The position numbers and the translations under genes are program-made. Positions 22,685-39,113 of a DNA stretch of 64,000 nucleotides are shown here, piece after piece (position 1 is the stretch's first letter; every line of letters starts with the position of its first letter). The notes below the pieces were generated by a model that did no database searches, was not told where the DNA came from, and saw only the letters and a list, made by a program, of their open reading frames with translations. The DNA is taken from positions 960,001 through 1,024,000 of the forward strand of contig CAVSOU010000010.1 in NCBI GenBank assembly GCA_963729625.1, in the 5' to 3' direction. The DNA comes from an uncultured bacterium (lineage in GTDB: Bacteria; Chloroflexota; UBA5177; JANWHV01).

Positions 22685-23698
22685 CTATCGCTGCAGCTGG
22701 GCGCTGGCGAGAAGATCTCGGTACATCTGCTGCGTCTGCACATCTGGGGCGATGTTGAGTTCTCGCCGAAGAACGTCTGCAAGCTTCCGGTACGTACGGA
22801 CCGCCTCGCCAGTGCGGCCGTCCGCGACCTGGAGTCGCATGAGGCCGCGCGTCGCGGGCTCGTGGTACGGATCCTGGTCGAGAACGGCATGCAGGCAGCG
22901 GGCGGCGGCGCTGAAGGCGCCATCATGCTCGCAGAGGGCGGCCGTGTGTAGCAAAATGGCAAGATAGCGCTGGCGCAACTCTTCCCTGCGGGTGACGGCC
23001 CATTCGTCGTACAGGTCTTCCGAGAGGTAGTCGCCCTTGTAAAGCGCCAGAGCAGCACGGCAGAGCGCGATGCTCTTGTGGGCAAGCGCGTTTGTCACTG
23101 CGCGATCGAAGACGGCGGCATCCAGCCAGTCCTGCGGCGCCGGCACGTCCGGTACGGCAGTCAGGACCAACATGTCTCCCTCCGCATGGATATAGCGGAC
23201 GCCTCCCGGGGTCTCGCCGAGAATCCGGCGAAGGCGGTGCACCGTGATGCGAAGGTTGTTCGCGCCGAGTTGAGGATCTGCATTTGGCCAGAGCATCTCC
23301 ATTGCATGTTCGCGGTGTACGCGCTGGCCCGGCGCACTGATGAGACATTTGAGGAGCCCGAAAACCTTGCGCTGTCTCAGGCTCTTCGCAGGCACCCGTA
23401 TATCGCCGCGCCATATTTCGAATGAGCCGAGGGTACGCACCCGGATGCAGGGGTTCGTCGGATCCGGCGACCGTGGCGTGACCGTCGGCAATGATAGGCC
23501 GGGCCCCGCGACAGCTGGCGGCAATTGCTTGCCCAGGTAGTGAGATCGCAGACGCCGGCCTTCGCGCCAATAGGCATACCAGTAGGGCCCATGGCCGGGT
23601 GCGCCGAGGCTGCAGCAGGAGCAGTCGGACTTATTGCAGCGCCGAAACTGCCGGCTGTACGTGACATGTGCCTGGGACTGAAGGTCACCGAACACCAT
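22685..23698 (-). CDS. SARP/BTAD transcriptional regulator with N-terminal DUF6788-like Cys/His module
   Basis: RRCNKSDCSCC...HGPYWYAYW...YLGK module; RTLGSF, MLWP winged helix; ALALYKGDYL..D.Y.EW, DPYHE...LM BTAD; start estimated. Confidence 0.88.
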   Translation of the reverse strand: MVFGDLQSQAHVTYSRQFRRCNKSDCSCCSLGAPGHGPYWYAYWREGRRLRSHYLGKQLPPAVAGPGLSLPTVTPRSPDPTNPCIRVRTLGSFEIWRGDIRVPAKSLRQRKVFGLLKCLISAPGQRVHREHAMEMLWPNADPQLGANNLRITVHRLRRILGETPGGVRYIHAEGDMLVLTAVPDVPAPQDWLDAAVFDRAVTNALAHKSIALCRAALALYKGDYLSEDLYDEWAVTRREELRQRYLAILLHTAALCEHDGAFSAAARCLHAVLDQDPYHEPATRGLMRLQVADGRTGEAVRTYRKLADVLRRELNIAPDVQTQQMYRDLLASAQLQR

Positions 23699-23860
23699 CC
23701 GCCAACCTCGAAGCAGCTCGCCCGTTCTTGGCAACAGCTTAAGAACAATTATGGACTCTCGCATGAGGTTGCACAAGGGGCCTCCAGATGTACACAAGGG
23801 CCACCTGAGAAACTGTGCAGCTCCGCTGAAACGAAGATGTTACGTCGAGGCGCTAGGCTC

Positions 23861-26800
23861 ATGTGTATGGAAGCTCAGCGGTTCGACGTCTTTCTCTCGC
23901 ACAATAGCCGGGACAAGGCCGCGGTCGAGCGCTTGGCCGTGAAGCTGAAGACCGCGGGCTTGGAGCCCTGGCTCGACAAATGGTGTTTGACGCCTGGTGG
24001 TCGTTGGCAGGAGGAGCTCGTCGCTGGGTTGCGCGCATGTTCGGCCTGCGCGGTTTTCGTCGGCCCGCACGGGCTTGGCGATTGGGTGCATGAGGAGCTC
24101 GGGGTCGCTCTTGACCGTGCGGCAAAGGATCGCAGCTTTCGTCTATTCCTGGCCCTGCTACCCGGGCTGCCCGAACCGTTCGACGCGACGACGCTCCCTC
24201 CGTTTCTCAGCACCCGCACGTGGGTGGACATGCGCCCGGGAATCGAAGACACGCGATCCTTCCAACACCTGATCAGCGCGATCAAGGGAGTGCCTTTCGG
24301 CCAGCAGATGCCCTCGGAACCGAACACCGATGTCTGTCCGTACCGGGGACTGCAGACCTTTGACGAAGAGCATGCTGAGCTATTCTTCGGGCGAGAAAAC
24401 GACGTGCAGAGGCTCGTAGAAAAGCTGAAGGCGACGCACTTCCTGGCCGTGCTTGGTCCTTCAGGTAGCGGCAAGTCCTCACTGGTGCGGGCAGGGCTTG
24501 TGCCCGCACTTCGACATGGGGCGCTTTCCAACAGTAACTCCTGGACGATCACCGTGTTCGCCCCTGGCGCCCATCCCTTGACCACTCTGGTCGCGCAAGT
24601 GCTGCGCCTTGGCGGTCACGGCAGCATGAACCAGACGCTTGACGAGATGGGAACCGACGCGCGCACCTTACATCTCGCGGTGACCTTAGCGATGGCCGAC
24701 CGCGTGCCCGCGGACCGCGTGGTGTGGGTGGTCGACCAATTCGAGGAAATCTTCACGCTGTGTCGCGACGAGCACGAGCGGAGCCAGTTTCTCGCGAATC
24801 TTCTGTACGCTGCGTCGGTGCATGAGGGCCGATGTATCGTGTTGCTAACCCTGCGCGCCGACTTCTACCAGAGGTGCGCAGTATATCCTGACCTCTCCGC
24901 ACGCATAGCGGCTCAACAATTCCTGGTCAGCCCCCTCGAGCCGGACGGACTGCGACGGGCGATTGAGGAGCCGGCATGGCATGTCGGCCTGGAGTTCGAA
25001 CATGGTCTCGTGGACACAATTCTCGAAGACGTCATTCGCCAACCAGGGGCTCTCCCATTGCTTGAACACGCGCTTCTGGAATTGTGGGAGCGCCGCCGCG
25101 GCCAGATGCTGACGCTCGAGGCGTATCGCCAGAGTGGGGGAGTGCAGGGCGCGATAGCGAAGCGTGCGGACACGATCTACAGTCGTTTTAGCCAGGAAGA
25201 ACAGGCGATTGCGCGCCGGACGTTGCTTCGCCTGACTCAACCGGGCGAAGGAACGGAGGATACTCGGCGCAGGGCATCGATAGGCGAGCTGGTCACTCGA
25301 CAGGGCGCCAATCCAGAGGTAGAAGCTGTTATTCGGGCGTTGGTCGACGCCAGACTGCTGACCACGAGCGAAGACGAGCCGAGCCACGAACACATGGTGG
25401 AAGTCTCGCACGAGGCTCTCATTCGCGGGTGGCCTCAGTTGCGAAGCTGGATCGACGAAGATCGCTCTGGGCTTCGGGTGCAGCGCCGTTTGACAGAAGC
25501 AGCGCTGGAATGGCAGCGCACGGATCGAGACGAAGGCGGGCTGTATCGAGGCGCTCGCCTGGCAACCGCGCTGGAGTGGAGCGCGCAGCACGAGGGCACG
25601 CTCAACGACCTCGAACGTGAGTTTCTTGACGCCAGTGCCGCCTTCAAACTCCGCGAGGAAGAACAGGAGTTGGCGCGCCAGCGCCGGGAGCTTGAAGCGG
25701 CCCGCCGGTTGGCCGATTCAGAGCGACGCCGTGCCAGGGTGGCTCGCTTGTTCTCACTTGGTCTGGTGCTTGTCTTGGCTGCAGCACTTGTCACTGCGGT
25801 GATCGCGGTTCAGCAGCGCACTCAAGCGCAAGACAGCGAGCGCAGAGCTCAAGACAGCGCGCGAAAGGCACAGGTCGCGGAGCAAAAGGCCCAGGTAGAG
25901 AAGCGGCTGGCCGACCAACAGCGCAGCGTGGCCTTTTCGCGCGAGCTCGCGGCAAATGCCCTGGCGAAACTGCAAACAGATCCGGAACTCAGTGTACTGC
26001 TGGCCAGTGCAGCTGAGCGCGCTGCGCATACGACTGAGGCGACTGAGGCGCTTCGCGATGCCCTGGGCCAATCCGCTGTGCGAACAGTGTTCCACGGGCA
26101 TTCCGGACCGGTCTTCACCGCACTGTACAGCCCGGATGGACGTCTCGTTGCAACGGCGGGCAACGATTCGACCGCGCGCGTTTGGGACGTGCAAACCGGG
26201 CGGCTGCTCTCGGTGCTCCGCGGGCATACCGGCGCCGTATACAGTGCGGTGTTCAGCCATAACGGCAACTTCGTGGTCACCGCAAGCAAGGACGACACGG
26301 CCAGAATATGGGAAGCACGAACGGGACGCCTCATCACCGTGTTGCGAGGCGATTCTCGCCCGGTTGTCTCCGCGTCGTTCAGCAAGGACGATCGCTTTGT
26401 CGTCACGGCGAGCTACGACAACACAGCGCGGGTGTGGGACGCACGGACTGGTTCGGTGGCAGCAATACTGAGAGGACACACCGCGCCGGTCTGGTACGCC
26501 GCATTCAGCCCCAACGGGCGCTACGTTGCCACAGCAAGTGCCGATGACACCGGCCGAATCTGGGATGCAGCGACCGGTCGCGCCGTAAGCATCTTGCGGG
26601 GGCATTCGAGCATCGTCGATGACGTGGCATTTAGCCCCGACGGCAACTACCTGGTTACCGGCAGTCTGGACAAGTCGGCCCGGGTGTGGAGTGTGCCAGA
26701 CGGCAAACTCGTAACCGTGATTCGGGGGCATCAGCAGGGCTGGGTGACGACGGCCACGTTCAGTCCCAACGGAAAGTACGTACTCACTGCCAGCGCGGAC

Positions 26801-28111
26801 GGATCGGCCGAGGTGGCAGACGCGCGAACAGGCGTGCTGTACAGTTGGATGCTCGGTCAGTCGGGCATACTATACAGTGCTTTCTTCAGTCACGACGGCC
26901 GGTACGTGGTCACCGCCGGCGCCGACGGAACCGCGCGGGTGTGGGCGGTTGGGGATCCGCCAATTGCGTCGCAAGCAGGGCCGATCCTGCGGGGCCATGC
27001 CAGCGATGTGTTCTTGGCGACCTTCAGTCCTGACGACCAGTATGTCTTAACGTCTAGCAAAGACGGCACGACGCGCATCTGGGATGTCGGCGCGGGCCAT
27101 CTGGCGGCGAAGGCGCCGGCCGGAGCTTCGTTCTGGGGCGTTGGTATCAGCCCGGACGGCACCCAGCTCGCTGCAGCCGCCGATGACGGCATCGTTCGTG
27201 TTTTCGACATTCGCACCGGACGGAGCATTGCAGAGCTTCGCGGCCAGGGCGGGACAGTTTGGTCCGCAGTGTATAGCCCGGACGGAACACAGCTCGTGAC
27301 GGCGAACAGCAATGGCACGACGAGGAACGGCACGGCGTGGGTGTGGCAAACCCGGACGTGGAAGCGACTTGCGATACTGCAGGGCCACGTTGGAAGCGTT
27401 AACCGGGCGGAATACAGTCCGGATGGGAGATACATTGTTACGGCGGGATCCGATGGCACGGCACGTGTGTGGGACACACGCACCTGGAAGACTGTCGTCG
27501 TGTTGCCAGCAAACAAGGGCAACGAAGGAAATGGTGCGTTTGCGCTCTATGATGCGTCGTTCAGCCACGATGGCCGCTACGTTGTACTGGCCAGCAACAG
27601 CGTCACGATTCACGTGCTGCTCGTATGGGATACCCACACGTGGCGCCTGGTGAAGAAGATTCCAGGCCCGTCCGACATCGTGTGGACGGCCGAGTTTAGC
27701 CCAGATGGCAAGTATATCGTGACGGCCGACAGCGACGGTTCAGCGCGCGTCTGGGACACGCAGACCTGGGACGTCTCGGCGGTACTCCAGAGCGGAACGT
27801 ATGGGCTGTGGACTGCGACCTTCAGTCCCGACAGCCAGTGGATAGTCACTGCCGGCCAGGATTCGACTTCGCATATATGGCAGGTGGGCACATGGGCGTC
27901 GGTCGACGTGCTCTACGGGGACAGCAACCAAGTGCATCGAGCAGCTTTCAGTCCTGATGGCAAAACTATTGCAACTGCGAGCGAGGACGGCACCGCGCGA
28001 ATCCACCAGTGTGACGTGTGCGGATCGGTCAGCCGGTTGCTTGCACTCGCCAACACGCGAGTTACACGTAGTCTCACGCCGAGCGAACGGAGGATATACC
28101 TGCACGAGTAG
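23861..28111 (+). CDS. TIR - nSTAND1 NTPase - TM - WD40 repeat protein (NLR-like receptor)
   Basis: FDVFLSHNSRDK...WVHEEL TIR; CPYRGLQTF..FFGRE, Walker A GPSGSGKSS, VDQFEE, TLRADF, LPLLEHAL, HEALIRGW; one TM helix; 15 WD40 repeats; start 23861 or 23867. Confidence 0.93.
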   Translation: MCMEAQRFDVFLSHNSRDKAAVERLAVKLKTAGLEPWLDKWCLTPGGRWQEELVAGLRACSACAVFVGPHGLGDWVHEELGVALDRAAKDRSFRLFLALLPGLPEPFDATTLPPFLSTRTWVDMRPGIEDTRSFQHLISAIKGVPFGQQMPSEPNTDVCPYRGLQTFDEEHAELFFGRENDVQRLVEKLKATHFLAVLGPSGSGKSSLVRAGLVPALRHGALSNSNSWTITVFAPGAHPLTTLVAQVLRLGGHGSMNQTLDEMGTDARTLHLAVTLAMADRVPADRVVWVVDQFEEIFTLCRDEHERSQFLANLLYAASVHEGRCIVLLTLRADFYQRCAVYPDLSARIAAQQFLVSPLEPDGLRRAIEEPAWHVGLEFEHGLVDTILEDVIRQPGALPLLEHALLELWERRRGQMLTLEAYRQSGGVQGAIAKRADTIYSRFSQEEQAIARRTLLRLTQPGEGTEDTRRRASIGELVTRQGANPEVEAVIRALVDARLLTTSEDEPSHEHMVEVSHEALIRGWPQLRSWIDEDRSGLRVQRRLTEAALEWQRTDRDEGGLYRGARLATALEWSAQHEGTLNDLEREFLDASAAFKLREEEQELARQRRELEAARRLADSERRRARVARLFSLGLVLVLAAALVTAVIAVQQRTQAQDSERRAQDSARKAQVAEQKAQVEKRLADQQRSVAFSRELAANALAKLQTDPELSVLLASAAERAAHTTEATEALRDALGQSAVRTVFHGHSGPVFTALYSPDGRLVATAGNDSTARVWDVQTGRLLSVLRGHTGAVYSAVFSHNGNFVVTASKDDTARIWEARTGRLITVLRGDSRPVVSASFSKDDRFVVTASYDNTARVWDARTGSVAAILRGHTAPVWYAAFSPNGRYVATASADDTGRIWDAATGRAVSILRGHSSIVDDVAFSPDGNYLVTGSLDKSARVWSVPDGKLVTVIRGHQQGWVTTATFSPNGKYVLTASADGSAEVADARTGVLYSWMLGQSGILYSAFFSHDGRYVVTAGADGTARVWAVGDPPIASQAGPILRGHASDVFLATFSPDDQYVLTSSKDGTTRIWDVGAGHLAAKAPAGASFWGVGISPDGTQLAAAADDGIVRVFDIRTGRSIAELRGQGGTVWSAVYSPDGTQLVTANSNGTTRNGTAWVWQTRTWKRLAILQGHVGSVNRAEYSPDGRYIVTAGSDGTARVWDTRTWKTVVVLPANKGNEGNGAFALYDASFSHDGRYVVLASNSVTIHVLLVWDTHTWRLVKKIPGPSDIVWTAEFSPDGKYIVTADSDGSARVWDTQTWDVSAVLQSGTYGLWTATFSPDSQWIVTAGQDSTSHIWQVGTWASVDVLYGDSNQVHRAAFSPDGKTIATASEDGTARIHQCDVCGSVSRLLALANTRVTRSLTPSERRIYLHE

Positions 28112-28167
28112 CGGAACACGGCGGTCCTGTAGTCATAGCGACTAGCTTGTCGGGGGCACACGAGGGC

Positions 28168-28413
28168 ATGGCCCAGTACGATTCGTTCATTCTACGTGTC
28201 TGGCGAAGCACGGGCGACGACGGCTCCCAGTGGGCCGGGAGACTGGAGCATCTGCAGCAGGGTCAGAGCTGGAGCTTCGGCAGTCTTGAAGAGCTGCTCG
28301 AGCATCTGCGGAACGTCGCCGATGGTGGTGGTTCGACTGTTGTATCAGTGCTCGACCGGTCGGGCCCAGGCATCGCGACCGACGCGGCAGGAACGGGTAT
28401 GTCGAACGCGTGA
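28168..28413 (+). CDS. Small conserved hypothetical protein (SFILRVW...GRLEH...F.SLEEL type)
   Basis: ATG behind GAGGG; motif pattern resembles small proteins often found near BTAD regulators. Confidence 0.75.
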   Translation: MAQYDSFILRVWRSTGDDGSQWAGRLEHLQQGQSWSFGSLEELLEHLRNVADGGGSTVVSVLDRSGPGIATDAAGTGMSNA

Positions 28414-28496
28414 CAATGACCAGGGGTCATGGGCAGTGAGGAATCGACTGACGGACGACAGAGTTTGGAGGGTGGTCCGTCGAAGGGGGAGAGTAG

Positions 28497-29630
28497 ATGA
28501 AGTGTGTTCATTGTACGCATGACGTGCCCGATGGGGTCTTCTGCACGCGATGCGGTGCGCAGCAAGCGACTACGCAGCAGGCCGGGAATACCAGGATGCG
28601 AGTTTCGCATTACGCGGCACATCCGGGCGAGCACGTGTTTCACCCCGGGATTTTCACGACGCTGTTTCCACACCTGGGCCAACATAAGTTGCACGAGTTC
28701 CGCTGGGCTTTTCTTGCCGGACTCGCGGGTATCTTTGTGCTCGACGTGGCCGGGCTGATCTCGGCCGCTATTCTGTGCGCCGCGCTGCTCATTCCGATTC
28801 TCTACCTCATGTACCTCTATGAGGCGCAGGTCTATCGCGACGCGCCGGCCACCGCGTTGGGCTTCACAATTGGAGGCGGCATCCTGCTTGGCATTGTCGT
28901 CACGGCGATAGTGGACCATTTCTCGAACTCTCTGGAGCTTGGCGGTCCGTTGGGCAGCCAGACAAGCACGCTCGTCGGCTTGTGCGTCATCGTGCCGATA
29001 GTTCAGGAGGTGCTCAAGCCAATCCCAGCCCTGATCTTGCGCGAGTCGTCTGACTTTGCGGAGACGGTCGACGGATTAGTGTTCGGCGTTGCCGCCGGTC
29101 TGGGGTACAGTGTCGCGGAGTCGATCATTCGGTTTTCATCCGTGTTGGGAAATCTCCCCAATCGCGTCGACCCTGGAAACTGGATCTATCCGCTCATCAC
29201 CTTGGCTGTGACGCTGCCATTGCTTCAGGGGAGCGCGACCGGCGCGATAACGGCCGCCGTGTGGCGCCTGCGCAAAGGCAGAATCGGTGTTCGCGAAGCA
29301 GGTGCCATCGTGATGGCCATCCTCGCCCATATCGGATTCATTCTGGTGAGCCAGCTGATGAGCGACCGCGGCTTGTCGCAGCTCGTGATTCTGGCCTGGC
29401 AGGCCGCTGTCGTTGGCGCGCTTCTGATTTACATTCGGTATTTGCTGCACTATGCGCTGCTCGAGGAGGCAGTGCACATGGGCTTTGACGAGACCATGTG
29501 TCCGAACTGTCATCGGCATATTGTGGCCTCGGGATTCTGCCCCAACTGCGGCAGGTCCCTCGCAGCCACGTCGGCATCGATCAGCATGGCCCGCAAGCCG
29601 GCCACGACTTCGGCGCCGGCGGGGGGCTGA
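28497..29630 (+). CDS. PrsW-family intramembrane protease-like protein with N- and C-terminal zinc ribbons (degenerate active site)
   Basis: CVHC..FCTRCG and CPNC..FCPNCG; DGLVFGVAAGLGY..AE PrsW motif; QEVLK at the EExxK position; many TM helices. Confidence 0.85.
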   Translation: MKCVHCTHDVPDGVFCTRCGAQQATTQQAGNTRMRVSHYAAHPGEHVFHPGIFTTLFPHLGQHKLHEFRWAFLAGLAGIFVLDVAGLISAAILCAALLIPILYLMYLYEAQVYRDAPATALGFTIGGGILLGIVVTAIVDHFSNSLELGGPLGSQTSTLVGLCVIVPIVQEVLKPIPALILRESSDFAETVDGLVFGVAAGLGYSVAESIIRFSSVLGNLPNRVDPGNWIYPLITLAVTLPLLQGSATGAITAAVWRLRKGRIGVREAGAIVMAILAHIGFILVSQLMSDRGLSQLVILAWQAAVVGALLIYIRYLLHYALLEEAVHMGFDETMCPNCHRHIVASGFCPNCGRSLAATSASISMARKPATTSAPAGG

Positions 29631-29633
29631 TCG

Positions 29634-30684
29634 ATGGCTCGCCAGTGCGCGTCCTGTGGAGCACAGAACCCCGACATCGCGTCATTTTGCCAGAACTGCG
29701 GCCGCCCCATCTCGGCGGCGCCGGCGGCTGGCCAAGGGGCCCCGGTGGCGGCGCCCCAAGGCGCTCAACCGCCCGGACAATCTTCCCCCGGCACGCCCTG
29801 GCAGGGCGGCCAGCAGTATCCGGCGAGCGCGCCACCGCAGCAAACCACAAGGGATGCCGGTTCCGCCGTACCAGCAAGGGCACTCTCAAGGTGGGCAATA
29901 CGGCGGTTACTATCCTCCAGGAATGGGCAGCTCTCCATCGATGCACCGATTGCCTTTCACGTCGATAGTCGCGGTCGTGATCGGAGTTCTCGGGATATTG
30001 ACCGCCGCCGCGGTGCTGTTTCTGCACTCGTCGAATCATCCCATGCCGCTGCCGCCACTTCCGACCCTCACCGTCGTGCCGACTGTCGCTCCTGCGGTGA
30101 CCGGCACGCAACAACCCACCGCGACGCAGGTGCCGAATCCCACTTCGTTACTGAACCCCACGCAGCCGCCCAGCCCGAACCCCACGCAACCGCCGAATCC
30201 AAGCCCCACACAGCCTGCAGGCGGGCAGGTGCTGACCACACAGGGCTTCTCGATTGACGTGTTGTCTGGATGGAGCGTGTCCCAGCAGCAGAGCAATTCA
30301 GCGCTGTTAGCCCACGCTTCCGGATCGGGCACGAATGGACTGCTCTATGTGGGAGCAGGACAGAGCAGTTCGCCGACAACGGCACAAACCATCCTGCAAA
30401 ACACTTTGACTACGTTGCAGCAGCAATATCCCGATGCGAAGCAGTGCGGCGACCTGGCGCAGTTCGCCGTGGCGAACATTCCCGGCACGGCGATGCCCGT
30501 ATGCTTCACACTCACCCCCCAGGGAGGCGCCTCGTTCCAGGCGCTCAGCGTCAACTGGGCGGCAACGAACTCCGCTGGCACTACCATCTACACGCTGCAG
30601 GAGATGGGCGCCGAGAATCCGCCCGACTTCTTCAACAACGACGTACCGCCGATAGTCAAAACTGTAAATTGGACGGTGAGCTGA
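29634..30684 (+). pseudogene. Zinc-ribbon/Pro-Gln-rich/TM/extracellular-domain protein, frameshifted (+1 base near 29842-29844; may be a sequencing error)
   Basis: N-half (CASC..FCQNCG) and C-half (GMPVPPY...HRLPF-TM...TPQGG) lie in different frames; deleting one A from CAAACCA gives PQQPQGMP; intact paralog at 34816. Confidence 0.8.
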
Positions 30685-32435
30685 TGCCGCGTTTCAGATC
30701 GATGCTTCTCGTCCCGGCAGCTGTCGTGCCGGCGCTTCTCGCAATCGTCGTCGGCGAGGCTGTGCCGGCGCAGAACATGGCGTCCCCGCGGGTGGCGAAC
30801 GCCCATGCCGGCGATCCGTACGCGCTCATGGTGGACCAATCGACCGACCTCGGCGCCGTGGCGCCGGGCCTTCGTGTTTCGCTGGTGCTAGGACTAAAAG
30901 ATCCACATGCAAAGTCCAGGGCGGCGGACTATGCGGCGATCAATACGCCGCACTCGGGCCAGTTCGGACAGTCGCTCACCTCCGCGCAGGTCGCGGCCCG
31001 CTACGGGCCATCGCCGGCCACGATGGCGCGCGTGACGACCGTACTGAAGCGCTACGGCCTTAGCGCGCAATGGCAGCCTGGCAACACGTGGGCCGTCATA
31101 ACAGGGCCTGCCAGGGCTGTGGAGTCCGCGTTCGGTGTGAACGTGCACTGGTACAGATCATCTCAAGGCGTTCACTACTTTTCTGCCGATCGCGTTCCAG
31201 TTCTGCCCCCGGCGCTCTCGGACGTCGCTACCGGCCTGAGCCGAATCTCAAGCTACTTTCCACAGCCGCGCCAGTCGGTGCCATCCGGAGGGGTAACGCC
31301 TACGGACCTGGTGTCGGCCTACAACATGGCGCCGCTTCGCAACATGGGACTCGACGGCACCGGCTCGACCGTAGCATTCCTGGAATCCGACGGCGGCTGG
31401 AACCAGCAAGACTTCGATACGTTTACTCAGAAATTCAACCTGCCGCCCTTGCACCCGGTACTGGCATCGGGCCCGTCGGGCAAGCCGCCCGATGGCGAGA
31501 CAGAAATGGATCTGGAGGTCGTGCATGAGATCGCGCCTGGTGCTCGCCTGGTCGTGTACAACTTCCCGTTCCAGGAGGAAGCCCAGGCCGCTACATCCGA
31601 CAGCGCGACGCTCACCGACTGGCTAAAACTTCAAACGCAGATGCTCAACGACAACAAAGGCGGCGTGCTGAGCATGAGCATGGGCCTGTGTGAGAAGATC
31701 TGGGACCCAACGCTGGCCAAGGCGTACAAAGACGCGTATGACAACACCACGCCGTTCCGCGAGAGCGTATTCGTTTCCACGGGAGACAGTGCCGCGTACT
31801 CGTGCATCATCACTGCTCCGAAGCGCGGTACGCCGCCGGCGCCGGATTACCTGGGAGCAGAGTTGCCGTCGGCGGTTCCAGGTGTTACGGCCGTTGGCGG
31901 GACCCGCCTGAGCCTGACCACCGACCATGCCTGGTACGACGAGACGGTGTGGGAGTATCCGGTGTCGACCAATGGCACTGGTGGTGGCGTCAGCGCCTAC
32001 TACTCGATGCCAACCTGGCAAAAGGGAAACGGTGTGTTGAACGCACAGCTGAACCCCAAGAACATGCGCGAGGTACCCGACGTCTCCGCGGATGCGGACG
32101 TGGCCAGCGGCGCGGCCACCTATTATGGCGATAGCAGCGGCGGCCACTGGGACGAGGGAGGCGGTACGAGCCAGTCGGCGCCGATCTGGGCTGCCATGAC
32201 CGTGCTCATCAATCAGTATCTGCAGAAACAGGGTCTTCGTCCCGCAGGGTTTCTGAATCCCGCGTTGTACCAGATAGCGGCCAGTGATCCCAACGCCTTC
32301 CACGACGTTACCGTTGGCACGAACCTGTACTATCCGGCGACGCCGGGCTATGACATGGCTACCGGTCTGGGCACGCCAAACGCGTGGAACCTGGCCCAGG
32401 ACCTGGCAGCATACCAGCGGAGTGGCGGGCAGTGA
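30684..32435 (+). CDS. S53 family (sedolisin/kumamolisin) serine-carboxyl peptidase with propeptide, secreted
   Basis: Signal peptide, activation prodomain, ETEMD (Glu/Asp), STGD oxyanion Asp, GGTS catalytic Ser, FHDV...GYDMATGLGTP Ca site; TGATG coupling to upstream gene. Confidence 0.94.
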   Translation: MPRFRSMLLVPAAVVPALLAIVVGEAVPAQNMASPRVANAHAGDPYALMVDQSTDLGAVAPGLRVSLVLGLKDPHAKSRAADYAAINTPHSGQFGQSLTSAQVAARYGPSPATMARVTTVLKRYGLSAQWQPGNTWAVITGPARAVESAFGVNVHWYRSSQGVHYFSADRVPVLPPALSDVATGLSRISSYFPQPRQSVPSGGVTPTDLVSAYNMAPLRNMGLDGTGSTVAFLESDGGWNQQDFDTFTQKFNLPPLHPVLASGPSGKPPDGETEMDLEVVHEIAPGARLVVYNFPFQEEAQAATSDSATLTDWLKLQTQMLNDNKGGVLSMSMGLCEKIWDPTLAKAYKDAYDNTTPFRESVFVSTGDSAAYSCIITAPKRGTPPAPDYLGAELPSAVPGVTAVGGTRLSLTTDHAWYDETVWEYPVSTNGTGGGVSAYYSMPTWQKGNGVLNAQLNPKNMREVPDVSADADVASGAATYYGDSSGGHWDEGGGTSQSAPIWAAMTVLINQYLQKQGLRPAGFLNPALYQIAASDPNAFHDVTVGTNLYYPATPGYDMATGLGTPNAWNLAQDLAAYQRSGGQ

Positions 32436-33595
32436 GCGAGCAAATGTACCAGAGCAACGTGCCAAGAGTCACGTGCCCAAACTGCAGCAGATCAGTTCCC
32501 GACGGCGAATTCTGCGGCGCGTGTGGTGCGCACCTCGGAAGCGAGTTTCTTCGGGCCACCCACCGTCCTCACTCGTACGCCGCCAACCCAAACGAGCATG
32601 TGGTGCATTTGAGCGTCGTGTCGACGCTCTTCCCGCACCTGCCCCATCGCCACACGGTACCGTTTGAGGTTGGCGTGGGAGTGACCGCCATTCTGCTCAC
32701 TCTGCTTGGCCTGCTGCGCCAGACCGGCCCAAGCATTGCGGTAGCCGCGGTAGCGATCCCTTTGCTGTATCTGCTCTACCTCTACGAAGTGGAGGTGTAT
32801 GAAGACGAGCCCGTCATTGTCATTGGCCTGACGATGGTCGCGGGAGTGGCGATTGGGATTCCTTGGGCGAAGTTCACCGGACCGATCATCACGAGGCTAC
32901 TGCTCGAAAACACGACGTTTGGGGTCGTTCCCGGTCGTCTGCTGCTGGGCGCGGCTGTGCTGCCGCTCGTCGCGCAACTCTTGATGTTGTTGGGGACGAT
33001 AGCGCTGTATTTCAGGCGGCGATACGACGAGACCCTCGACGGTTTCACCTTCGGCGCTGCCGGCGCGCTCGGCTTCACCATGTCGAGCACCGTTGTCAAT
33101 CTTTGGCCTGAACTACGGCATGGCACTACCTCGACGGCGCCGGTCACGACGAACGTGCTGGACGTTCTGCAACAGGGGCTGCTCCTTCCCGTGGTGAATG
33201 CCAGCCTCACCGGCCTCATTGCCAGCGCCATATGGTTGAATCGTGGCGCGATCCGACGCTTGCGCTTCCATCGCTGGACCTCGGCGATAGGCACCAGCGT
33301 AGCGATCGCCGTCGTGCTCCGCGTGGCGCTCGGGCTAGTATCGGTGTTGGCAGTCGACCCGATCTACAGCGTCGTCGCGTACGGGTTTGCTGCGGTCGCG
33401 GTGCTCATGTGGGTCCGCGTTGCCCTTCACCATATGCTGCTGAGCGAGGCAGTAGACGTGAGCGTGGGCCCCGATTCGGTCTGTACGCATTGCCACCGGA
33501 TGGTTCCTCGCATGGCATTCTGTCCGCATTGCGGAATCGCCACCCGGGCCACGCCCAAGTCCGGGCATGGTCGAGCAAACCGCACCTTCAGATAG
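32432..33595 (+). CDS. Second PrsW-like membrane protein with terminal zinc ribbons (catalytic motifs lost)
   Basis: CPNC..FCGACG and CTHC..FCPHCG; YAANPNEHV..STLFPHL shared with 28497; DGFTFGAAGALGF; GTGA overlap with S53 stop. Confidence 0.85.
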   Translation: MSEQMYQSNVPRVTCPNCSRSVPDGEFCGACGAHLGSEFLRATHRPHSYAANPNEHVVHLSVVSTLFPHLPHRHTVPFEVGVGVTAILLTLLGLLRQTGPSIAVAAVAIPLLYLLYLYEVEVYEDEPVIVIGLTMVAGVAIGIPWAKFTGPIITRLLLENTTFGVVPGRLLLGAAVLPLVAQLLMLLGTIALYFRRRYDETLDGFTFGAAGALGFTMSSTVVNLWPELRHGTTSTAPVTTNVLDVLQQGLLLPVVNASLTGLIASAIWLNRGAIRRLRFHRWTSAIGTSVAIAVVLRVALGLVSVLAVDPIYSVVAYGFAAVAVLMWVRVALHHMLLSEAVDVSVGPDSVCTHCHRMVPRMAFCPHCGIATRATPKSGHGRANRTFR

Positions 33596-33608
33596 GAGAG
33601 CGCCATAC

Positions 33609-34793
33609 ATGCCGACAATCAACTGTAGCAAGTGCGGCGCTTCGAACGATTCGAGCGTCCCCTTCTGTGGACATTGCGGAGCGCCGCTGCAAGCTGCCCC
33701 GGCGCCCGTCCCAGAGACGGTGTCGTCGATGAGCTGCCCGCGATGCGGGCTCGCCAACCAGCCAGGAGTACGATTCTGCGGGCACTGCGGCGCGTCGTTG
33801 CAAGCATCGCCGGCACCCCTCCAGGAGCCGGCTCCGCCGACTAACTGCCCTCGATGCGGGTTCGCCAACCAGACTGGGGTGCGATTCTGCGGGCACTGCG
33901 GCGCGCCGCTTCAGTCCGCCACAGTGTCACCTCCCGAACCAGCGCCACCAGCGGGGGCTGCACCGTGCCCGCGTTGTGGTGCGGCCAACCAGACCGGAGT
34001 ACGGTTCTGCGGTCGCTGCGGCCAACCGCTTTCCATGCCGGTAACGCCTGCTCAGGGCCAAGCCATCGCGGCCTTCCCCCACCGACTTGGCACCAGAGCG
34101 GAAATCGCTGCGGCAATGCCCCGCAAGACTGGGTACCGGCAGCCGGTTTGGCCGATTCTTGTGGCCGTGATTGGGCTGCTTATGGCCGGGCTCGCGTTTG
34201 GCGCTCGCGAGCTCGAAGCAACGCCCACGCCACCCTGCGGCACGCGCTGCACGCCGGCGCCCCCGCCGATTGGTCCGCCCCTGCCGGCAGCCCATACGTA
34301 TACCAGCTCCGCGCTCGGCTTTTCAGTGGAGTACACCGACAGCGTGGTCCAGAACCTTGGCGCGCCGATCACGGACGACCATTCCCTGGGCTGGAGCGTG
34401 ACCCTGCAAAATGGCGACGCAATCCTGGTCAAGTTCCAGGGAGAAGCTGCCGGAGGACGCTCGGCGCAGCAGGTTGTGACGGCCTTACAGCAGAGTCTCA
34501 TACCCGGCGCCACACTCGTGTTCCAGATTCCTGACGCTGAGCTCGGGTACACCGAAGGATACGGCGCGGTGTACGACATCACTGTTTCGCCCCAGGGAGG
34601 CCAGCAGGTCGACGAACACTTCGTCATCGAAGCCTCGGTCAACAACGACGTCGCGGTCGAGCTGATAGGGTCGAGTGCCTTCACGCCGGACAAGAATGGT
34701 CACCCAAGCCCTGCCCAACTCGAGCCGGCGGTCGAACAGCTGTCCGATATCTTCGGAAACACCGTGATCTGGAAAGGCCAGTCGCCAAAGTAG
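33609..34793 (+). CDS. Four-zinc-ribbon single-pass membrane protein with extracellular domain
   Basis: Four CxxCG..N...FCGxCG units, TM helix, Pro-rich linker, GFSVEY...SPQGG domain; RBS AGGAG. Confidence 0.88.
   Translation: MPTINCSKCGASNDSSVPFCGHCGAPLQAAPAPVPETVSSMSCPRCGLANQPGVRFCGHCGASLQASPAPLQEPAPPTNCPRCGFANQTGVRFCGHCGAPLQSATVSPPEPAPPAGAAPCPRCGAANQTGVRFCGRCGQPLSMPVTPAQGQAIAAFPHRLGTRAEIAAAMPRKTGYRQPVWPILVAVIGLLMAGLAFGARELEATPTPPCGTRCTPAPPPIGPPLPAAHTYTSSALGFSVEYTDSVVQNLGAPITDDHSLGWSVTLQNGDAILVKFQGEAAGGRSAQQVVTALQQSLIPGATLVFQIPDAELGYTEGYGAVYDITVSPQGGQQVDEHFVIEASVNNDVAVELIGSSAFTPDKNGHPSPAQLEPAVEQLSDIFGNTVIWKGQSPK
33622..34035 (+). repeat. Intragenic tandem repeats encoding zinc ribbons
   Basis: Units at ~33733, ~33844 and ~33964 share GCCAACCAG and TTCTGCGG at DNA level (periods ~111 and ~120 bp); a more divergent first unit starts ~33622. 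Confidence 0.8.
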
Positions 34794-34815
34794 GCATGTG
34801 AGAGGGTGATGTCGT

Positions 34816-36063
34816 ATGTGCCCACGTTGTGGTGCCCAGAACCCTGAAGGATCGCTGTTTTGTCAGAACTGCGGCGCCCCATTGGCGGGCGGGCAGGCCG
34901 GTCCGCCGCCGCGGCACGACGTATTGCCGCCACCGGGCATCATCCAGCCGCCGGGTGCGCCGCCGCCACCGCCGGCAGGATCGCCGATTCCGGTGGGGGG
35001 CGTCCCCGCGGGAGGATTCCCACCACCGGGATACTCACCCTATCAGAGTCCGTATTATGTGCCGGTCGGGCCACCCGGAGCGCCGGTTCATCGGTTGCCG
35101 TGGTTCAGCATAATAGGCTTGGCACTTGGCGTCCTCGGCATCGTTGCGCTTGGCGCAACATTGCTTCTGCGGTCCAACGTACCGACAGTGCGGTCGCTCA
35201 GCCCGTTGCCTACCGCGACGGCGGTTCCCACCACGCGACCGCAGGAGACGTCGACCGCTGTCCCGACGAACACGTCCGTACCGACATCAATCCCGACCGG
35301 TACGGCTATGCCAACATCGGGCGCGACAGTCACGGCGGCGCCTACTTCCGTACCTGCCGAGACTGACACGCCCGCGTCGAGCTCCAGTCCGGCGGCAACC
35401 GACACCCTGGCCGCTACGGTCGAAGCGCCCACCGCTACGGCGGTCGTGACGGATACCCCCGCCGTACCGGAGGCCACCGCGACGACAGCAAAGCTGCAAA
35501 AGCCGGCCACGTCAAAGACGCCAACAGGTTTGCATATTCCCGCACCGACGCCCGTGCCCACGAAAGCGGCGCACACCGCCACGACGGCGTGCCGCATTAC
35601 AGCGGGCAAGGTCGTGGCGACGAACACGTTCTGCGTTGCCTTGCTCCAGGGATGGAGCGTGCTGCAAAAGGAAAACGTCGACATCATTCTCAAGGACGAC
35701 ACTGGGGGCGGGGGCTTCGGAACCCTCTACATTAACTCGGGAACCTTGAAGACACCCACCACTGCTCAGGAGTGGCTCCAGCAGGTGATCGCGGGCTATC
35801 AGAAACAGTACCCCGATGTGAAGGAATGCGGCACCGCCGCACAATTCACCGTAGGTAGCGTCACAGGCACCGGCATCCCGATATGCTACAGTGAAACCCC
35901 GCAAGGCGGCGCCGCGTTTCCGGCGGTATCGGAGCTGTGGGCTGCCACGAACGGGGGCGGAACGACGGTCTATTCGTTTGGAATGAACGCCGCAGCGAGC
36001 GACGCGAAGATGCTAGATAACACGAGCAAGCTGCTGGAATCCTTGCAGTGGTACCTGCCCTGA
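34816..36063 (+). CDS. Zinc-ribbon/Pro-rich/TM/Thr-rich stalk/extracellular-domain protein
   Basis: CPRC..FCQNCG, HRLPW-TM, PT-rich stalk, C-terminal domain paralogous to 29634 (QQYPD.K.CG, TPQGG, WAATN..GTT). Confidence 0.88.
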   Translation: MCPRCGAQNPEGSLFCQNCGAPLAGGQAGPPPRHDVLPPPGIIQPPGAPPPPPAGSPIPVGGVPAGGFPPPGYSPYQSPYYVPVGPPGAPVHRLPWFSIIGLALGVLGIVALGATLLLRSNVPTVRSLSPLPTATAVPTTRPQETSTAVPTNTSVPTSIPTGTAMPTSGATVTAAPTSVPAETDTPASSSSPAATDTLAATVEAPTATAVVTDTPAVPEATATTAKLQKPATSKTPTGLHIPAPTPVPTKAAHTATTACRITAGKVVATNTFCVALLQGWSVLQKENVDIILKDDTGGGGFGTLYINSGTLKTPTTAQEWLQQVIAGYQKQYPDVKECGTAAQFTVGSVTGTGIPICYSETPQGGAAFPAVSELWAATNGGGTTVYSFGMNAAASDAKMLDNTSKLLESLQWYLP

Positions 36064-37691
36064 ACACAACTGGAACCATCGCATACCGCCTGCGGATTGG
36101 CGTAACCGGCCATCGGTGCCTGCCAACGGACGACGCATTCGTGGCGCGCGTGAGCGAAGCCCTGGATAGAGTCAGGCGGATGGCGCCGCCGCGGCCGGCC
36201 ACGCCAGTGTATCTGGCGGTTTGCTCCGCTCTGGCCGAGGGCGCAGACAGATTGGTGGCCTCACTCGTGCTCGAGGATCGGCATGCCTGCCTGGAGGTGG
36301 TGCTCCCAATGCCGATCGCGGCGTATAAGTCGGACTTCCAGACCGAGGAGTCCAATCGAGCGTTCGACCAGCTCATGGAGCGAGCGACGCGGGTCGTGGA
36401 GCTGCCGGCGGCGGAGACGCGCGACGAAGCGTACGAGCAAGCCGGTCGATACGTGGTCGAGCGATGCGACGTATTGATTGCCCTTTGGGATGGCAATCCG
36501 GCGCGCGGTCAGGGCGGCACTGCCGACGTAGTCGAGTGGGCACGGGATCGGCAAATACCGCTACTCTGGGTGCACACGGTTGCTCCGTACGCGCTGACTG
36601 TCGATCGGCGCGCCGCAATGTCGACGGCATCGTACGAGGGGCTTGATCGTCACAATCGCGCGCGCCTTCCCCATGAAGAGTTTGAGCGAGACGTGCGGCA
36701 GCACGTAGAGCGCTTCCACACTCAGGCCACGCGTAACGGGCTGGAGCACTCCGCACTGCAGCCATACTGTGACTGGCTTATTCCAACATTCGTGCGGGCG
36801 GACCTGCTGGCGACACGCTACCAGAAGCGGTTCTTTCTGTTTAGCGATGCGATCTTTATCCTGGCAGCGCTTGCCGTGGTGGCCTCTGCCGGCACCGAGC
36901 TCGCCAGCCACGCGCCCTCGTTCGTCAGTGGGCAGATTCTGTCGCGGGTGCGCCCGCTCCCGCTGGTCGAGTTCACGGCGATGCTTCTGGTTTTGGTGGT
37001 GCTGCAGCTCGTGCGGCGCCAGGCATTTCACCGAGACTGGATCTCGCATCGCGTCATGGCTGAACGCCTGCGCTCGGCACTGTTCCTCGCGCTCGTGCGT
37101 CTCGACATAGGAGATGAGCGTGGCGTCGAAAGCGTGAGTCTTCATCAGGCGGCCGATGAATGGTTGGAGCGAGCCTACGAGGAAGTGTGGAACCAACGAC
37201 CTCCGCCCGACACGTCGATTTCAGTCGCTATTCTCAGGCGTTTCCTGGCCAAGGCATGGATTGAGGACCAGGTCAGCTATCAGCGGAAAAAGAGTCATCG
37301 GCACGAGTGGAACCATCAGCTGATCTCGAACATCACTGTGGCGATATTCCTCACCACACTAATCATTGCCGGGATGGATGCGATTGGCGCGATCAGCGAC
37401 AGCGCGCACGACGCGCCGCTGTGGACTACCACGGTGCTGTACCTCTCGGTCACGCTTCCGGCCGTGGCCAGCGCACTCGGCGGTATTGGGGCTCAGCGGG
37501 AGCACACCCGTAACGCGCATCGGAGCGGGCAAATGGCGCGCTATCTTACGAGTCTCGAGCAGCGGATGGAAGTCGCGACCGACCTTCCCACGATTCATAG
37601 CGTGGCGCGACAGGCGGAGGCCGTGATGCTGCAGGAAATCGACGATTGGTTCGTCACGATGGAGTATCGTGACGTCGAGCTTCAGGGCTGA
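36048..37691 (+). CDS. SLOG (YspA-like) nucleotide-binding domain fused to two SLATT/DUF4231-like 2TM modules
   Basis: IGVTGHR, SALAEGAD, LPMP, DVLIALWDG..GGTADVV; then AD.LA.RYQ-2TM-W..HR..AERLRS and WIEDQVSY-2TM; start overlaps upstream stop. Confidence 0.8.
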   Translation: MVPALNTTGTIAYRLRIGVTGHRCLPTDDAFVARVSEALDRVRRMAPPRPATPVYLAVCSALAEGADRLVASLVLEDRHACLEVVLPMPIAAYKSDFQTEESNRAFDQLMERATRVVELPAAETRDEAYEQAGRYVVERCDVLIALWDGNPARGQGGTADVVEWARDRQIPLLWVHTVAPYALTVDRRAAMSTASYEGLDRHNRARLPHEEFERDVRQHVERFHTQATRNGLEHSALQPYCDWLIPTFVRADLLATRYQKRFFLFSDAIFILAALAVVASAGTELASHAPSFVSGQILSRVRPLPLVEFTAMLLVLVVLQLVRRQAFHRDWISHRVMAERLRSALFLALVRLDIGDERGVESVSLHQAADEWLERAYEEVWNQRPPPDTSISVAILRRFLAKAWIEDQVSYQRKKSHRHEWNHQLISNITVAIFLTTLIIAGMDAIGAISDSAHDAPLWTTTVLYLSVTLPAVASALGGIGAQREHTRNAHRSGQMARYLTSLEQRMEVATDLPTIHSVARQAEAVMLQEIDDWFVTMEYRDVELQG

Positions 37692-37693
37692 CC

Positions 37694-38800
37694 GTGCACC
37701 TCCGGTGCCCTTCATGCGGATCATCGAGTGTGCGGCGCGCGCGGTTCTGCACGCGTTGCGGTGCGCCGCTTCCGCCGGCGCCTACCTTGTTGCAGGTGCT
37801 TTGGCACTCCCCAACGGCGATAATCGCCGGGGTTTCAGTCGCTTCCGTGGCCTTGATCGTGGCCGCGGCGGCCGCCAGCGGGCAACTGGGCGGTGCGGAA
37901 GCGCCCACCCCTGGGCCGCCGCTCACGGCCGTATCGAGCGCGGTCCCACAATTGACGGGAACGCCTGTCCCGGGAGCGACTTTCTCGGCGACGTCCGGGC
38001 CTGTTCCTACCTCCGCACCGGGCCAGTCGCCCGGTCCCATCGATACGGCTACTCCCGACAACTCCGGGTCTACTGATGCGGCTCATGTCGTCAGCCTGCA
38101 GGACTCGGTGACGTTTCCCAATCAAGATCCCAACACCACGAGCGATCCGCAGACGATTACGCTGAGCAACGAAGGCGGTACCGCCCAGGCGTTGGGAGCC
38201 CCACAGATAGGAGGCTCGAACCCAGACGCTTTTACCGTCTCCAGCAATGAGTGCGGTTCCAGCATTGAAGCCGTGACGCGATGTGATGTGCTCGTGACAT
38301 TCACTCCGTCCGGCGCGGGCGGCTACAGCGCGGAGCTGGACATAGTCGACGAACAAGGCAACACCGTGGTCTCCGTCGCGCTTGGTGGAGCCGGTGGAGG
38401 CGCTGCGGAAGATGTGTCCGTCACGGCGTACAGTCTTGACTTTGGCAGCATCAATATCGGAACGTCGACGTCACAGTCTTTCAGCGTCGACAATAATGGC
38501 ACAGCTGCCGTTACCATCAGCGCGGCCCAAAGCGGCGACTCGGCCTTTGAGCTATCCGATGAATGCTCCGGGAGCCTTGCCGCCGGTACAAGCTGCAGCG
38601 AGCAGGTCTCGTTTAGCCCGTCCGACTCGACGAGCTACTCGGGGTCGATCACGATCAGTGACGACAGCGGCAATGAGCTCGGAACTGTCTCACTCGCGGG
38701 CTCGGGCTACGACCCGAACGCGTCGAGTGCCGTGCATGGAGCGTCCACAGGGGCCGTGCCCCATGCGTCTGGCCCAAGCTCTCCGACGGCTGTGCATTGA
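37694..38800 (+). CDS. Zinc-ribbon/TM protein with two choice-of-anchor D (ASH-type Ig-like) domains
   Basis: CPSC..FCTRCG, TM helix, Pro/Thr stalk, ITLSNEG...C...C.V.VTFTP and LDFG..VDNNG...SC..VSFSP repeats. Confidence 0.82.
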   Translation: MHLRCPSCGSSSVRRARFCTRCGAPLPPAPTLLQVLWHSPTAIIAGVSVASVALIVAAAAASGQLGGAEAPTPGPPLTAVSSAVPQLTGTPVPGATFSATSGPVPTSAPGQSPGPIDTATPDNSGSTDAAHVVSLQDSVTFPNQDPNTTSDPQTITLSNEGGTAQALGAPQIGGSNPDAFTVSSNECGSSIEAVTRCDVLVTFTPSGAGGYSAELDIVDEQGNTVVSVALGGAGGGAAEDVSVTAYSLDFGSINIGTSTSQSFSVDNNGTAAVTISAAQSGDSAFELSDECSGSLAAGTSCSEQVSFSPSDSTSYSGSITISDDSGNELGTVSLAGSGYDPNASSAVHGASTGAVPHASGPSSPTAVH

Positions 38801-39104: not shown

Positions 39105-39113
39105 TGCTATAAT
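39105..39113 (+). promoter_or_regulatory. Extended -10 promoter of the kinase/KaiC-like operon
   Basis: TGCTATAAT (TGn + perfect TATAAT) in an AT-rich patch ~95 bp upstream of ATG 39209. Confidence 0.6.

Follow-up and report, generated by a model that had tools for sequence, protein, structure and literature searches.

A PrsW-like/S53 membrane module nested between TIR-STAND and SLOG-SLATT genes in one clade of Chloroflexota

The window analyzed here, a 64,000-nt stretch from the genome of an uncultured Chloroflexota bacterium (GenBank assembly GCA_963729625.1, contig CAVSOU010000010.1, positions 960,001 to 1,024,000), contains nine co-oriented open reading frames (ORFs) on the forward strand (23861–38800), which we number G1 to G9. 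Two of them, G1, a protein with TIR, nSTAND1, and WD40 domains, and G8, a membrane protein with SLOG and SLATT parts, constitute module A, and the six genes lying between them, G2 to G7, encode two PrsW-like proteins, an S53 peptidase, and single-helix zinc-ribbon proteins and constitute module B. A sequence-only reading of the window had taken the nine genes, together with a divergent BTAD regulator, for one integrated system in which envelope sensing and proteolysis are wired to a nucleotide second messenger. Having compared the locus with its relatives, we lean, with a little more confidence than doubt, toward a different account, in which it is a composite of two autonomous modules, B being nested in A in one clade. 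The parts are of known kinds, their union is clade-specific, and a link between the modules is unproven.

Distribution and gene order of the two modules

Either module is found by itself far more often than in company with the other, and one congener keeps both of them apart, a pattern that argues for two autonomous modules. (The genome containing the window is coded G000, other genomes G001 and so on, and loci L with a number; ORFs in the compared loci are six-frame ORFs.) A profile of nine proteins of the G5 type, termed PrsW-b, yielded 82 confirmed relatives in genome contigs, and most of the best 80 of these loci, on which all module B counts are based, contain no TIR or SLATT gene; SLOG and SLATT profiles matched among them only the window, G003, G004, and G011, the last with SLATT only. 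Conversely, among 77 metagenome loci gathered with a SLOG-SLATT profile, module B genes stand beside the SLOG-SLATT gene in 7, the other 70 having module A without module B. The congener G001, whose SLOG-SLATT protein is the closest to G8 (60% identity), carries a TIR-nSTAND1-WD40 gene (L130:11608–15879) that abuts the SLOG-SLATT gene (L130:9903–11639) on one strand with no gene between them; the same contig carries a complete module B at a distance of about 690 kb. Together with the phylogeny described next, these counts do not support the claim of one integrated nine-gene system as it was put.

The nested order, with module B enclosed between a G1-like and a G8-like gene, is found in this genome, in the congeners G003 and G004, and on the metagenome contigs L133, L134, L135, L147, L149, and L166. 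In L134, L135, and L166 the series runs WD40 gene, G9-like gene, PrsW-a (the G2 type), G3/G7-like gene, S53, PrsW-b, G6, and SLOG-SLATT. A quick maximum-likelihood tree of 61 SLOG-SLATT proteins places every nested case within one clade of 10 rows (SH-aLRT 98). The clade also holds G001, with no module B between its module A genes, L140, whose upstream side is not visible, and L139, where the SLOG-SLATT gene lies among unrelated genes. G011 with L153, and G067, are placed just outside this clade. From these data, the nesting of B in A would most simply represent one old event that was later undone in G001, and the arrangement in G011, described below, would be either a relic of an older vicinity or the product of a second event. 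Where B is nested, in this one clade of Chloroflexota, it is probably co-transcribed with the module A genes.

As the sequence-only reading had noted, the nine genes are co-oriented with tight junctions, an observation borne out by the ORF coordinates except that G3 is broken. G3 and G4 share an ATGA overlap (30681–30684) and G4 and G5 a GTGA overlap (32432–32435), G5 and G6 overlap by 29 nt and G7 and G8 by 16 nt, and gaps of 2–3 nt lie between G2 and G3 (29630/29634) and between G8 and G9 (37691/37694). The further proposal that all nine form one probable operon holds in part: the spacing and overlaps are tight, but 385 nt separate the stop of G1 (28111) from the start of G2 (28497), and promoter-like and terminator-like sites in the window are no commoner than in shuffled sequence, so that the case for a single operon has to be drawn from spacing.

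The TIR-STAND gene and its SLOG-SLATT partner

G1 (23861–28111; 1416 aa) matches the Pfam families TIR_2 (1.1e-22), nSTAND1 (4.4e-134), and WD40 (1.7e-113), the nSTAND1 match spanning profile positions 1–378 of 379 and the WD40 matches covering 12 stretches. The STAND core, whose Walker A motif reads GPSGSGKS in the translation, sits between the TIR as N-terminal effector domain and the C-terminal repeats. In the alignment, Glu79 falls on the W..EL-motif Glu of the AbTIR NAD hydrolase (8g83) and of PdTIR (3h16), a residue that we take to be the catalytic one of the TIR domain, and in this respect the TIR is as the sequence-only reading described it. Orthologues of G1 are present in G003 (55% identity) and in G001, in the locus L130 mentioned above. 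The genome is rich in proteins of this kind, with 11 TIR_2 and 22 nSTAND1 matches in 5.4 Mb and at least five full-length TIR-nSTAND1 paralogues of about 1470–1540 aa (G000 contigs C8, C9, C10, C11, C14, and C17), against a single SLOG-SLATT gene, G8. There are also several broken TIR-nSTAND1 copies, one of them with an internal TAG (C11).

G8 (36048–37691) consists of a SLOG domain (residues ~1–190) followed by four hydrophobic membrane helices, which correspond to two SLATT units. In a Foldseek search with an AlphaFold2 (AF2) model of G8 (pLDDT 86), the N-terminal domain matched YpsA (2nx2; E 8.3e-05, target TM 0.63) and then DprA, LOG, and ShosA, and given its resemblance to the YpsA, DprA, and LOG folds, the modeled domain has a SLOG fold. 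The domain has no Pfam matches, and a profile of the SLOG-SLATT alignment gave only chance-level matches against the Protein Data Bank (PDB; E 0.9). SLATT_3, DUF4231, and SLATT_1 match G8 itself only below their curated cut-offs. G8 has 526 relatives at E ≤ 0.001. The 120 of these that were listed are mostly full-length, and many of the 120 carry precomputed SLATT_1, DUF4231, or SLATT_3 matches; the family alignment was made from 43 of the 120. The assignment of G8 as a SLOG-SLATT protein thus stands, with SLOG identified by fold. More generally, the annotation by hidden Markov models suggested earlier upholds the TIR, nSTAND1, WD40, PrsW-like, S53, and zinc-ribbon calls. PADLOC, also suggested, returned only weak TIR-domain matches for G1 (best PDC-S66, 2.6e-09; ThsB, 2e-3) and no model matching G8 or any module B protein.

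Full-length relatives of G8 occur in 6 of 401 genomes of the phylum (G000, G001, G003, G004, G011, and G067), where they recurrently lie near TIR genes. In this genome G1 and G8 are 7.9 kb apart with six genes between them; in G011 a TIR-WD40 gene, and in G067 a TIR-NB-ARC-TPR gene, is divergent to the SLOG-SLATT gene. The 77 metagenome SLOG-SLATT loci likewise include 18 with a TIR-domain gene, at a distance of no more than 500 nt in 11 of them and no more than 3 kb in 17; of the 57 loci that show 2 kb or more of flank, 16 have such a gene. The sensor parts of these TIR proteins vary, comprising WD40, PQQ-type propeller, Sel1, double zinc ribbon, NB-ARC/STAND-TPR, and nSTAND1-WD40; the protein with a C-terminal double zinc ribbon (L170:2556–4184) is encoded 458 nt from the SLOG-SLATT gene. 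Directly after SLOG-SLATT, a gene for a patatin-like phospholipase is found in several loci (L017:15732–16886, L019:7636–8769, L131:5892–7073, and L140:1682–2848; also in G011), the place taken by G9 in the window. These patatin-like genes match the NCBIfam model CBASS_lipase at 2.7e-25, which is below its cut-off.

Module A is a Thoeris-like variant with an NLR-type TIR. Its domains, the SLOG fold, the conserved Glu, and the recurrent adjacency of TIR and SLOG-SLATT genes support the logic, already put forward in the sequence-only reading, of a TIR enzyme acting on a SLOG-SLATT effector. The WD40/STAND part of G1 would sense a trigger, its TIR would cleave NAD+ to produce an ADP-ribose-derived signal, the SLOG domain of G8 would bind that signal, and the four-helix SLATT part would then damage or gate the membrane. 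The conserved SLOG-SLATT partner suggests TIR signaling rather than NAD+ depletion alone. If this is indeed the case, then a TIR on an NLR-type sensor does not only burn NAD+ and signals to a separate membrane executor.

The PrsW-like/S53 membrane module

Module B is a widespread, undescribed membrane module, no account of which was found in the literature searched. It extends across soil Chloroflexota/Dormibacteria and Actinomycetota, the PrsW-b loci lying in metagenome-assembled genomes labeled Dormibacterota, Chloroflexota, and Actinomycetota, besides some with other labels that look like binning errors. Of 41 related genomes searched, three congeners likewise have the pair of PrsW-like genes at a spacing of about 3.9 kb. 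Among 12 regions compared by tblastn, a set of S53, PrsW-b, and a G6-like gene recurs in six loci of other families, and the longer order PrsW-a, G3-like, S53, PrsW-b, G6 recurs in G001, G003, G004, and G006. An S53 relative is present in 73 of the 80 PrsW-b loci, and a profile finds the G6-type C-terminal domain in 73 of 80, six of the seven misses ending at or just past the PrsW-b match. In 75 of 85 non-duplicate loci an S53 cluster accompanies the PrsW-b ORF, its median position being −1475 nt relative to the start of that ORF, and 79 of 80 ORFs are on the same strand; this single-linkage ORF clustering is partly swamped by low-complexity ORFs and serves for position only. In 14 varied loci the neighbors of module B are ordinary genes for cation efflux, LysE, GT87, dehydrogenases, and transporters. 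PrsW-a also occurs with a G7-like partner as bare two-gene pairs among sugar-metabolism genes in G001 (L014 and L016), and such a pair supplies the best match to PrsW-a of the window (73%).

The two PrsW-like proteins differ in how much of the catalytic machinery they keep. G2 (PrsW-a; 28497–29630), with at least five hydrophobic segments and zinc ribbons at its N and C termini, matches the Pfam family PrsW-protease (PF13367) at 7.7e-11 and 42.3 bits, above the cut-off of 23.5, and G5 (PrsW-b; 32432–33595), the anchor of module B and likewise flanked by zinc ribbons, scores 20.9 bits, below it. Against the NCBIfam PrsW model (NF033739), the two reach 19.5 and 22.6 bits, respectively, where the cut-off is 225. 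Using as reference a Pfam-confirmed PrsW (L022:7580–8506; 5.8e-27) with the motifs EE, GFAAFED, and HALWD, we scored nine b-type and six a-type sequences for EE, the Glu after the GxGF motif, and HxxxD/N, which presumably hold the catalytic residues of Bacillus subtilis PrsW. In PrsW-b, EE is replaced by A/S-Q in all nine sequences, and the Glu and the His are each kept in only one of nine. In PrsW-a, QE stands in five of six, the second-motif Glu is kept in all six and the His in five, and the Asp/Asn is lost in all six; G2 itself has QE for EE and retains the second-motif Glu and the His. From these replacements, G5 is judged to be a catalytically dead polytopic membrane protein, and G2, partly degenerate, appears to be at best an impaired protease. 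The earlier description of a PrsW pseudoprotease pair is therefore apt for G5, which is clearly dead, but less so for G2, which keeps three catalytic-motif residues.

The partners of these proteins are zinc-ribbon membrane proteins, Pfam placing zinc ribbons on G2, G3, G5, G6 (four), G7, and G9. G6 (33567–34793) has its four zinc ribbons (DZR, 1.4e-29) ahead of one helix (residues 194–212) and a PsbP/Mog1-like domain, so oriented, according to prediction, that the ribbons are cytoplasmic and the C-terminal domain is extracytoplasmic. An AF2 model of this domain (pLDDT 91), for which 42 of the 53 stretches found and the G7 and G3 domains of the window were used as input, forms an alpha-beta sandwich of PsbP/Mog1-like fold, with fold matches to PsbP (1v2b; E 2e-04), Tsi3 (target TM 0.65), EagT6, DcrB, Apa, MTC28, and Mog1; it has no Pfam family match, and the likeness to PsbP is one of fold only. 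G7 (34816–36063) comprises a zinc ribbon (Zn_Ribbon_1, 6.7e-09), one helix, a Pro/Thr-rich linker, and a PsbP-like C-terminal domain. G3 (29634–30684), a paralogue of G7, is similarly built, and the C-terminal domains of both are distant relatives of that of G6 (hhalign probability 91%, E 1e-6).

That 29634–30684 is one gene, as first proposed, is true insofar as both halves exist, but they lie in different frames, the zinc ribbon in one (ORF 29634–30257) and the helix and C-terminal domain in another. The switch falls at about 29835–29855, as located by tblastn with the intact orthologues from L017, L019, and L015 and with G7. The orthologues in G001, G003, and G004 are intact, and the frameshift of G3 may represent either a pseudogene or an assembly error; public DNA contigs leave 29456–29819 uncovered, and none of them bridges the switch. 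In the protein database G6 appears only as a 225-aa product (P0122) that starts after the four zinc ribbons; the true gene looks like the 408-aa ORF, whose in-frame ribbons match Pfam strongly. Apa and MTC28 of Mycobacterium tuberculosis are secreted proline-rich glycoproteins. Genes for PMT-type protein mannosyltransferases lie near module B in two loci (L020:2658–4505 and L025:15743–17464), and both G3 and G7 carry long Pro/Thr linkers.

G4 (30681–32435) encodes an S53 serine-carboxyl peptidase of the sedolisin/kumamolisin type with its prodomain (Pro-kuma_activ, 1.7e-21). It aligns with pro-kumamolisin (1t1e; 3.5e-39) over residues 52–575, including the GE.E.D, GDS, and GGTS motifs, among whose Ser, Glu, and Asp residues the catalytic ones presumably are, and has an N-terminal hydrophobic segment (residues 7–25) that could be a signal or an anchor.

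A complex model of PrsW-b with G6 residues 125–408 supports binding between the two proteins. Its score is 0.69 (0.73, 0.69, and 0.67 in separate runs) against 0.00 for the best control, and the mark that it reached was attained by 116 of 157 solved complexes and by 2 of 215 mismatched pairs. Between runs, at least 86% of contacts agree, and the partner has a pLDDT of 71 or more. In the model, the G6 helix packs against PrsW-b helices, and the G6 loop 338–350 rests on the PrsW-b loops 146–163 and 219–247, beside the degenerate second motif. PrsW-b and the G6 domain are moreover fused in one ORF in nine loci by a strict count, the G6 domain lies in an ORF of at least 500 aa in up to 18 loci, and a fused protein of 608 aa is present in the database. 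In G010, a PrsW-b partner (L023:9156–10580) has an FHA head instead of zinc ribbons, in frame with the G6-type C-terminal domain, and is followed by genes for a Ser/Thr kinase and a PP2C phosphatase, a setting that hints at a role of the partner's cytoplasmic head as signaling adaptor.

Conservation, fusions, and the supported binding model are the ground on which we picture module B as an exported S53 peptidase set among two tandem pairs, each consisting of a PrsW-like protein and its zinc-ribbon/one-helix/PsbP-like partner. The dead PrsW-b would hold its partner as a scaffold, in the way that pseudoproteases hold clients, the S53 peptidase would probably trim either the exposed PsbP-like domains or a ligand that these domains bind, and the resulting state would be passed on to the cytoplasmic zinc ribbons. 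Neither module would need the other. Module B, if correctly understood, would be a bacterial instance of a pseudoprotease scaffold that has both a defined partner and an exported peptidase dedicated to it.

The remaining gene of the nine, G9 (37694–38800), encodes a zinc ribbon, one helix, and two Ig-like choice-of-anchor D/ASH domains (choice_anch_D, 1e-28; further matches to Cep192_D4, HYDIN, and ASH). Its relatives vary in position among loci, lying between the WD40 gene and PrsW-a in L134, L135, and L166; none was found by phmmer in G003 or G004, where the patatin gene follows SLOG-SLATT. Upstream of G1 and divergent from it, on the reverse strand, lies a gene for a SARP/BTAD-type regulator (22685–23797; BTAD, 6.3e-18; Trans_reg_C, 2.9e-08). 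It probably belongs to neither module: phmmer found no relative of it in 92 related loci, and in G003 its place is taken by a GGDEF-EAL gene and a DsbH-like gene. Downstream, a promoter-like site (39086–39113) marks the end of the locus and is followed by a gene for a MerR-PAS histidine kinase and one for a double-domain KaiC-like ATPase (39194–42463). The BTAD gene, which had been counted as part of the system, and likewise the MerR-kinase and KaiC genes were rejected as members, not being conserved with the locus. A 351-aa gene after module B in L020 was considered as a SLATT gene and rejected, as it is unlike the SLATT protein of L021 and has no Pfam matches.

Alternative readings and comparison with known systems

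Several points weigh against an account in terms of two autonomous modules. The nested order is kept although the SLOG-SLATT proteins concerned are only 46–53% identical to G8, and its junctions are overlapping or very short, the gap between G1 and G2 being 18 nt in G003 against 385 nt here. L153, a 69.5-kb contig of a second family with a SLOG-SLATT protein identical to that of G011, holds within some 12 kb, and in another order than the nested one, the genes for S53, PrsW-b, G6, a SLATT-only protein, TIR-WD40 (on the other strand), SLOG-SLATT, and patatin; the SLATT-only gene of this lineage (L021:9945–11000, equivalent to L153:2358–3443), directly after module B, matches SLATT_3 (Pfam, 4.3e-33) and SLATT_1 and has no SLOG. 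In L035, of a further lineage, a TIR protein is encoded 2.3 kb from module B. The conserved order with its tight junctions, the arrangement in L153, and the TIR gene in L035 favor a functional link between A and B. Beyond these, the tree is a quick version, the SLATT matches of G8 itself are below cut-off, the S53 substrate and any signal output of module B are proposed rather than observed, and G1 could be an Avs-like protein that depletes NAD on its own.

Functional coupling of A and B is possible. Module B homologues do co-occur with both arms of module A in relatives, and the nine genes could form one system, the PrsW-like/S53/zinc-ribbon platform having been recruited as the envelope-side input, the regulator, or a guarded target of the TIR-STAND protein and the SLATT pore; the PsbP-like and Ig-like ectodomains, together with the S53 cut, would then register a surface event such as phage contact or envelope damage, and this event would tune the TIR/SLOG-SLATT response. 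Besides the features just listed, this agrees with the variable number and place of the partners G7 and G9, as is often seen for accessory sensor genes. We regard it nonetheless as rather unlikely, given that each module so often occurs without the other, that the closest relative of G8 belongs to the genome with adjacent A genes and a full, distant module B, that the nested cases form one clade and so may represent one event, that, with 11 TIR_2 matches in 5.4 Mb, a chance TIR neighbor is no rarity for any given locus, and that PADLOC models match no module B protein. That an envelope platform of dead PrsW scaffolds, PsbP-like and Ig-like partners, and a sedolisin has been captured in a TIR-NLR/SLOG-SLATT operon, as an outward input or a guarded target, we hold to be unlikely.

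At the level of the single modules, G1 could act by itself as an Avs/NLR-like abortive-infection protein whose TIR depletes NAD+, with G8 answering some other nucleotide and their vicinity reflecting the clustering of defense genes. A recent Thoeris survey, from which Avs-type TIRs were removed, treats STAND-borne TIRs as NAD-depleting effectors and leaves them out (bioRxiv 10.64898/2025.12.03.692087); the excess of full-length TIR-nSTAND1 paralogues over the one SLOG-SLATT gene and the absence of a TIR gene within 14 kb of SLOG-SLATT in L139, a member of the same clade, also fit. TIR genes with many sensor types nevertheless lie directly beside SLOG-SLATT, 11 of 77 within 500 nt, and the same survey has SLOG as the sensor of the TIR signal in type I Thoeris and SLATT as the effector in type VII, so that we consider this improbable. 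Module B, for its part, could carry out regulated intramembrane proteolysis in the manner of PrsW and RsiW, PrsW-a cutting the zinc-ribbon proteins and S53 trimming the stub before the heads act in the cytoplasm. The residues that PrsW-a retains would allow it, the partners resemble anti-sigma factors in being single-pass proteins with a cytoplasmic head, and the FHA-headed partner of G010 stands beside a kinase and a PP2C phosphatase. We think it quite unlikely, however: the widely conserved core uses PrsW-b, in which all three motifs are lost, PrsW-a too has lost the Glu that opens EE and the Asp/Asn that follows the His, and the loci scanned showed neither a sigma factor gene nor a site-2 protease gene next to module B.

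Returning to the reading of two autonomous modules, the claim that the combination is not a described system holds for module B in the literature searched, whereas the TIR with a SLATT or SLOG arm follows a catalogued logic. Type I Thoeris, as described in the survey, pairs the TIR protein ThsB with the SIR2-SLOG protein ThsA, the SLOG domain sensing the TIR signal, and type VII pairs a TIR with the SLATT effector ThsH, the signal being cADPR (bioRxiv 10.64898/2025.12.03.692087). Module A shares with these a TIR enzyme and an effector that joins a signal-sensing part to a killing part. It differs in that one protein combines SLOG and SLATT, that a 1416-aa STAND-WD40 protein carries the TIR in place of a small ThsB, and that 7.9 kb separate the two genes in this genome, the likeness being known from sequence and fold. 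STAND-based conflict systems have been described as well, and the accessible text of that study mentions SLATT with GTPase-centered systems and not this pair (Kaur et al. 2020, eLife, PMC7159879). G1 has the build of Avs and bNACHT NLR-like proteins, with an N-terminal effector, a STAND NTPase, and C-terminal repeats, and the 22 nSTAND1 and 11 TIR_2 matches of this genome resemble the many diversifying paralogues of NLR-like STAND proteins in filamentous or soil lineages; the conserved SLOG-SLATT partner gene sets it apart and suggests signaling beyond NAD+ depletion. Networks of TIR, SLOG, and SLATT domains were reportedly first predicted by Burroughs et al. in 2015.

In B. subtilis, PrsW (MEROPS M82) is the site-1 protease of the anti-sigma factor RsiW. 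G2 and G5 belong to the same membrane-domain family, with weak matches to PF13367 and NF033739, and their partners are likewise single-pass proteins with a cytoplasmic head. Unlike PrsW, PrsW-b has no catalytic motifs and PrsW-a keeps part of them. Both proteins also carry additional zinc ribbons at their N and C termini and go with a partner that bears a PsbP-like ectodomain, and the loci scanned showed no neighboring sigma factor gene. G4 aligns over its full length with pro-kumamolisin, prodomain and catalytic motifs included, but differs from kumamolisins and other sedolisins in belonging to a fixed gene set with membrane proteins and in its N-terminal hydrophobic anchor or signal. A mechanistic parallel is offered by iRhoms and Derlins, inactive relatives of intramembrane proteases that keep client binding and hold a single-pass client; similarly, the complex model sets the partner helix and a conserved loop against PrsW-b, although the fold families are unrelated.

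The nesting of B in A, if it holds, offers a natural experiment on whether defense operons recruit envelope modules. Plant TNL proteins act through a small molecule on EDS1 with a helper NLR that forms a membrane channel. If our view of module A is correct, then the bacterial TIR-NLR/SLOG-SLATT pair follows the logic of plant TNL immunity, in mechanism only, with many TIR-NLR sensors, few membrane-acting executors, and a predicted NAD-derived signal between them; the downstream protein is SLOG-SLATT here rather than EDS1 with a helper NLR. Should the envelope platform in fact have been captured by module A, then this would be a Thoeris-like system that reads cell-surface events, and several TIR-NLR paralogues would feed into one SLOG-SLATT executor, in the manner of plant TNLs, many of which share a few helper channels.

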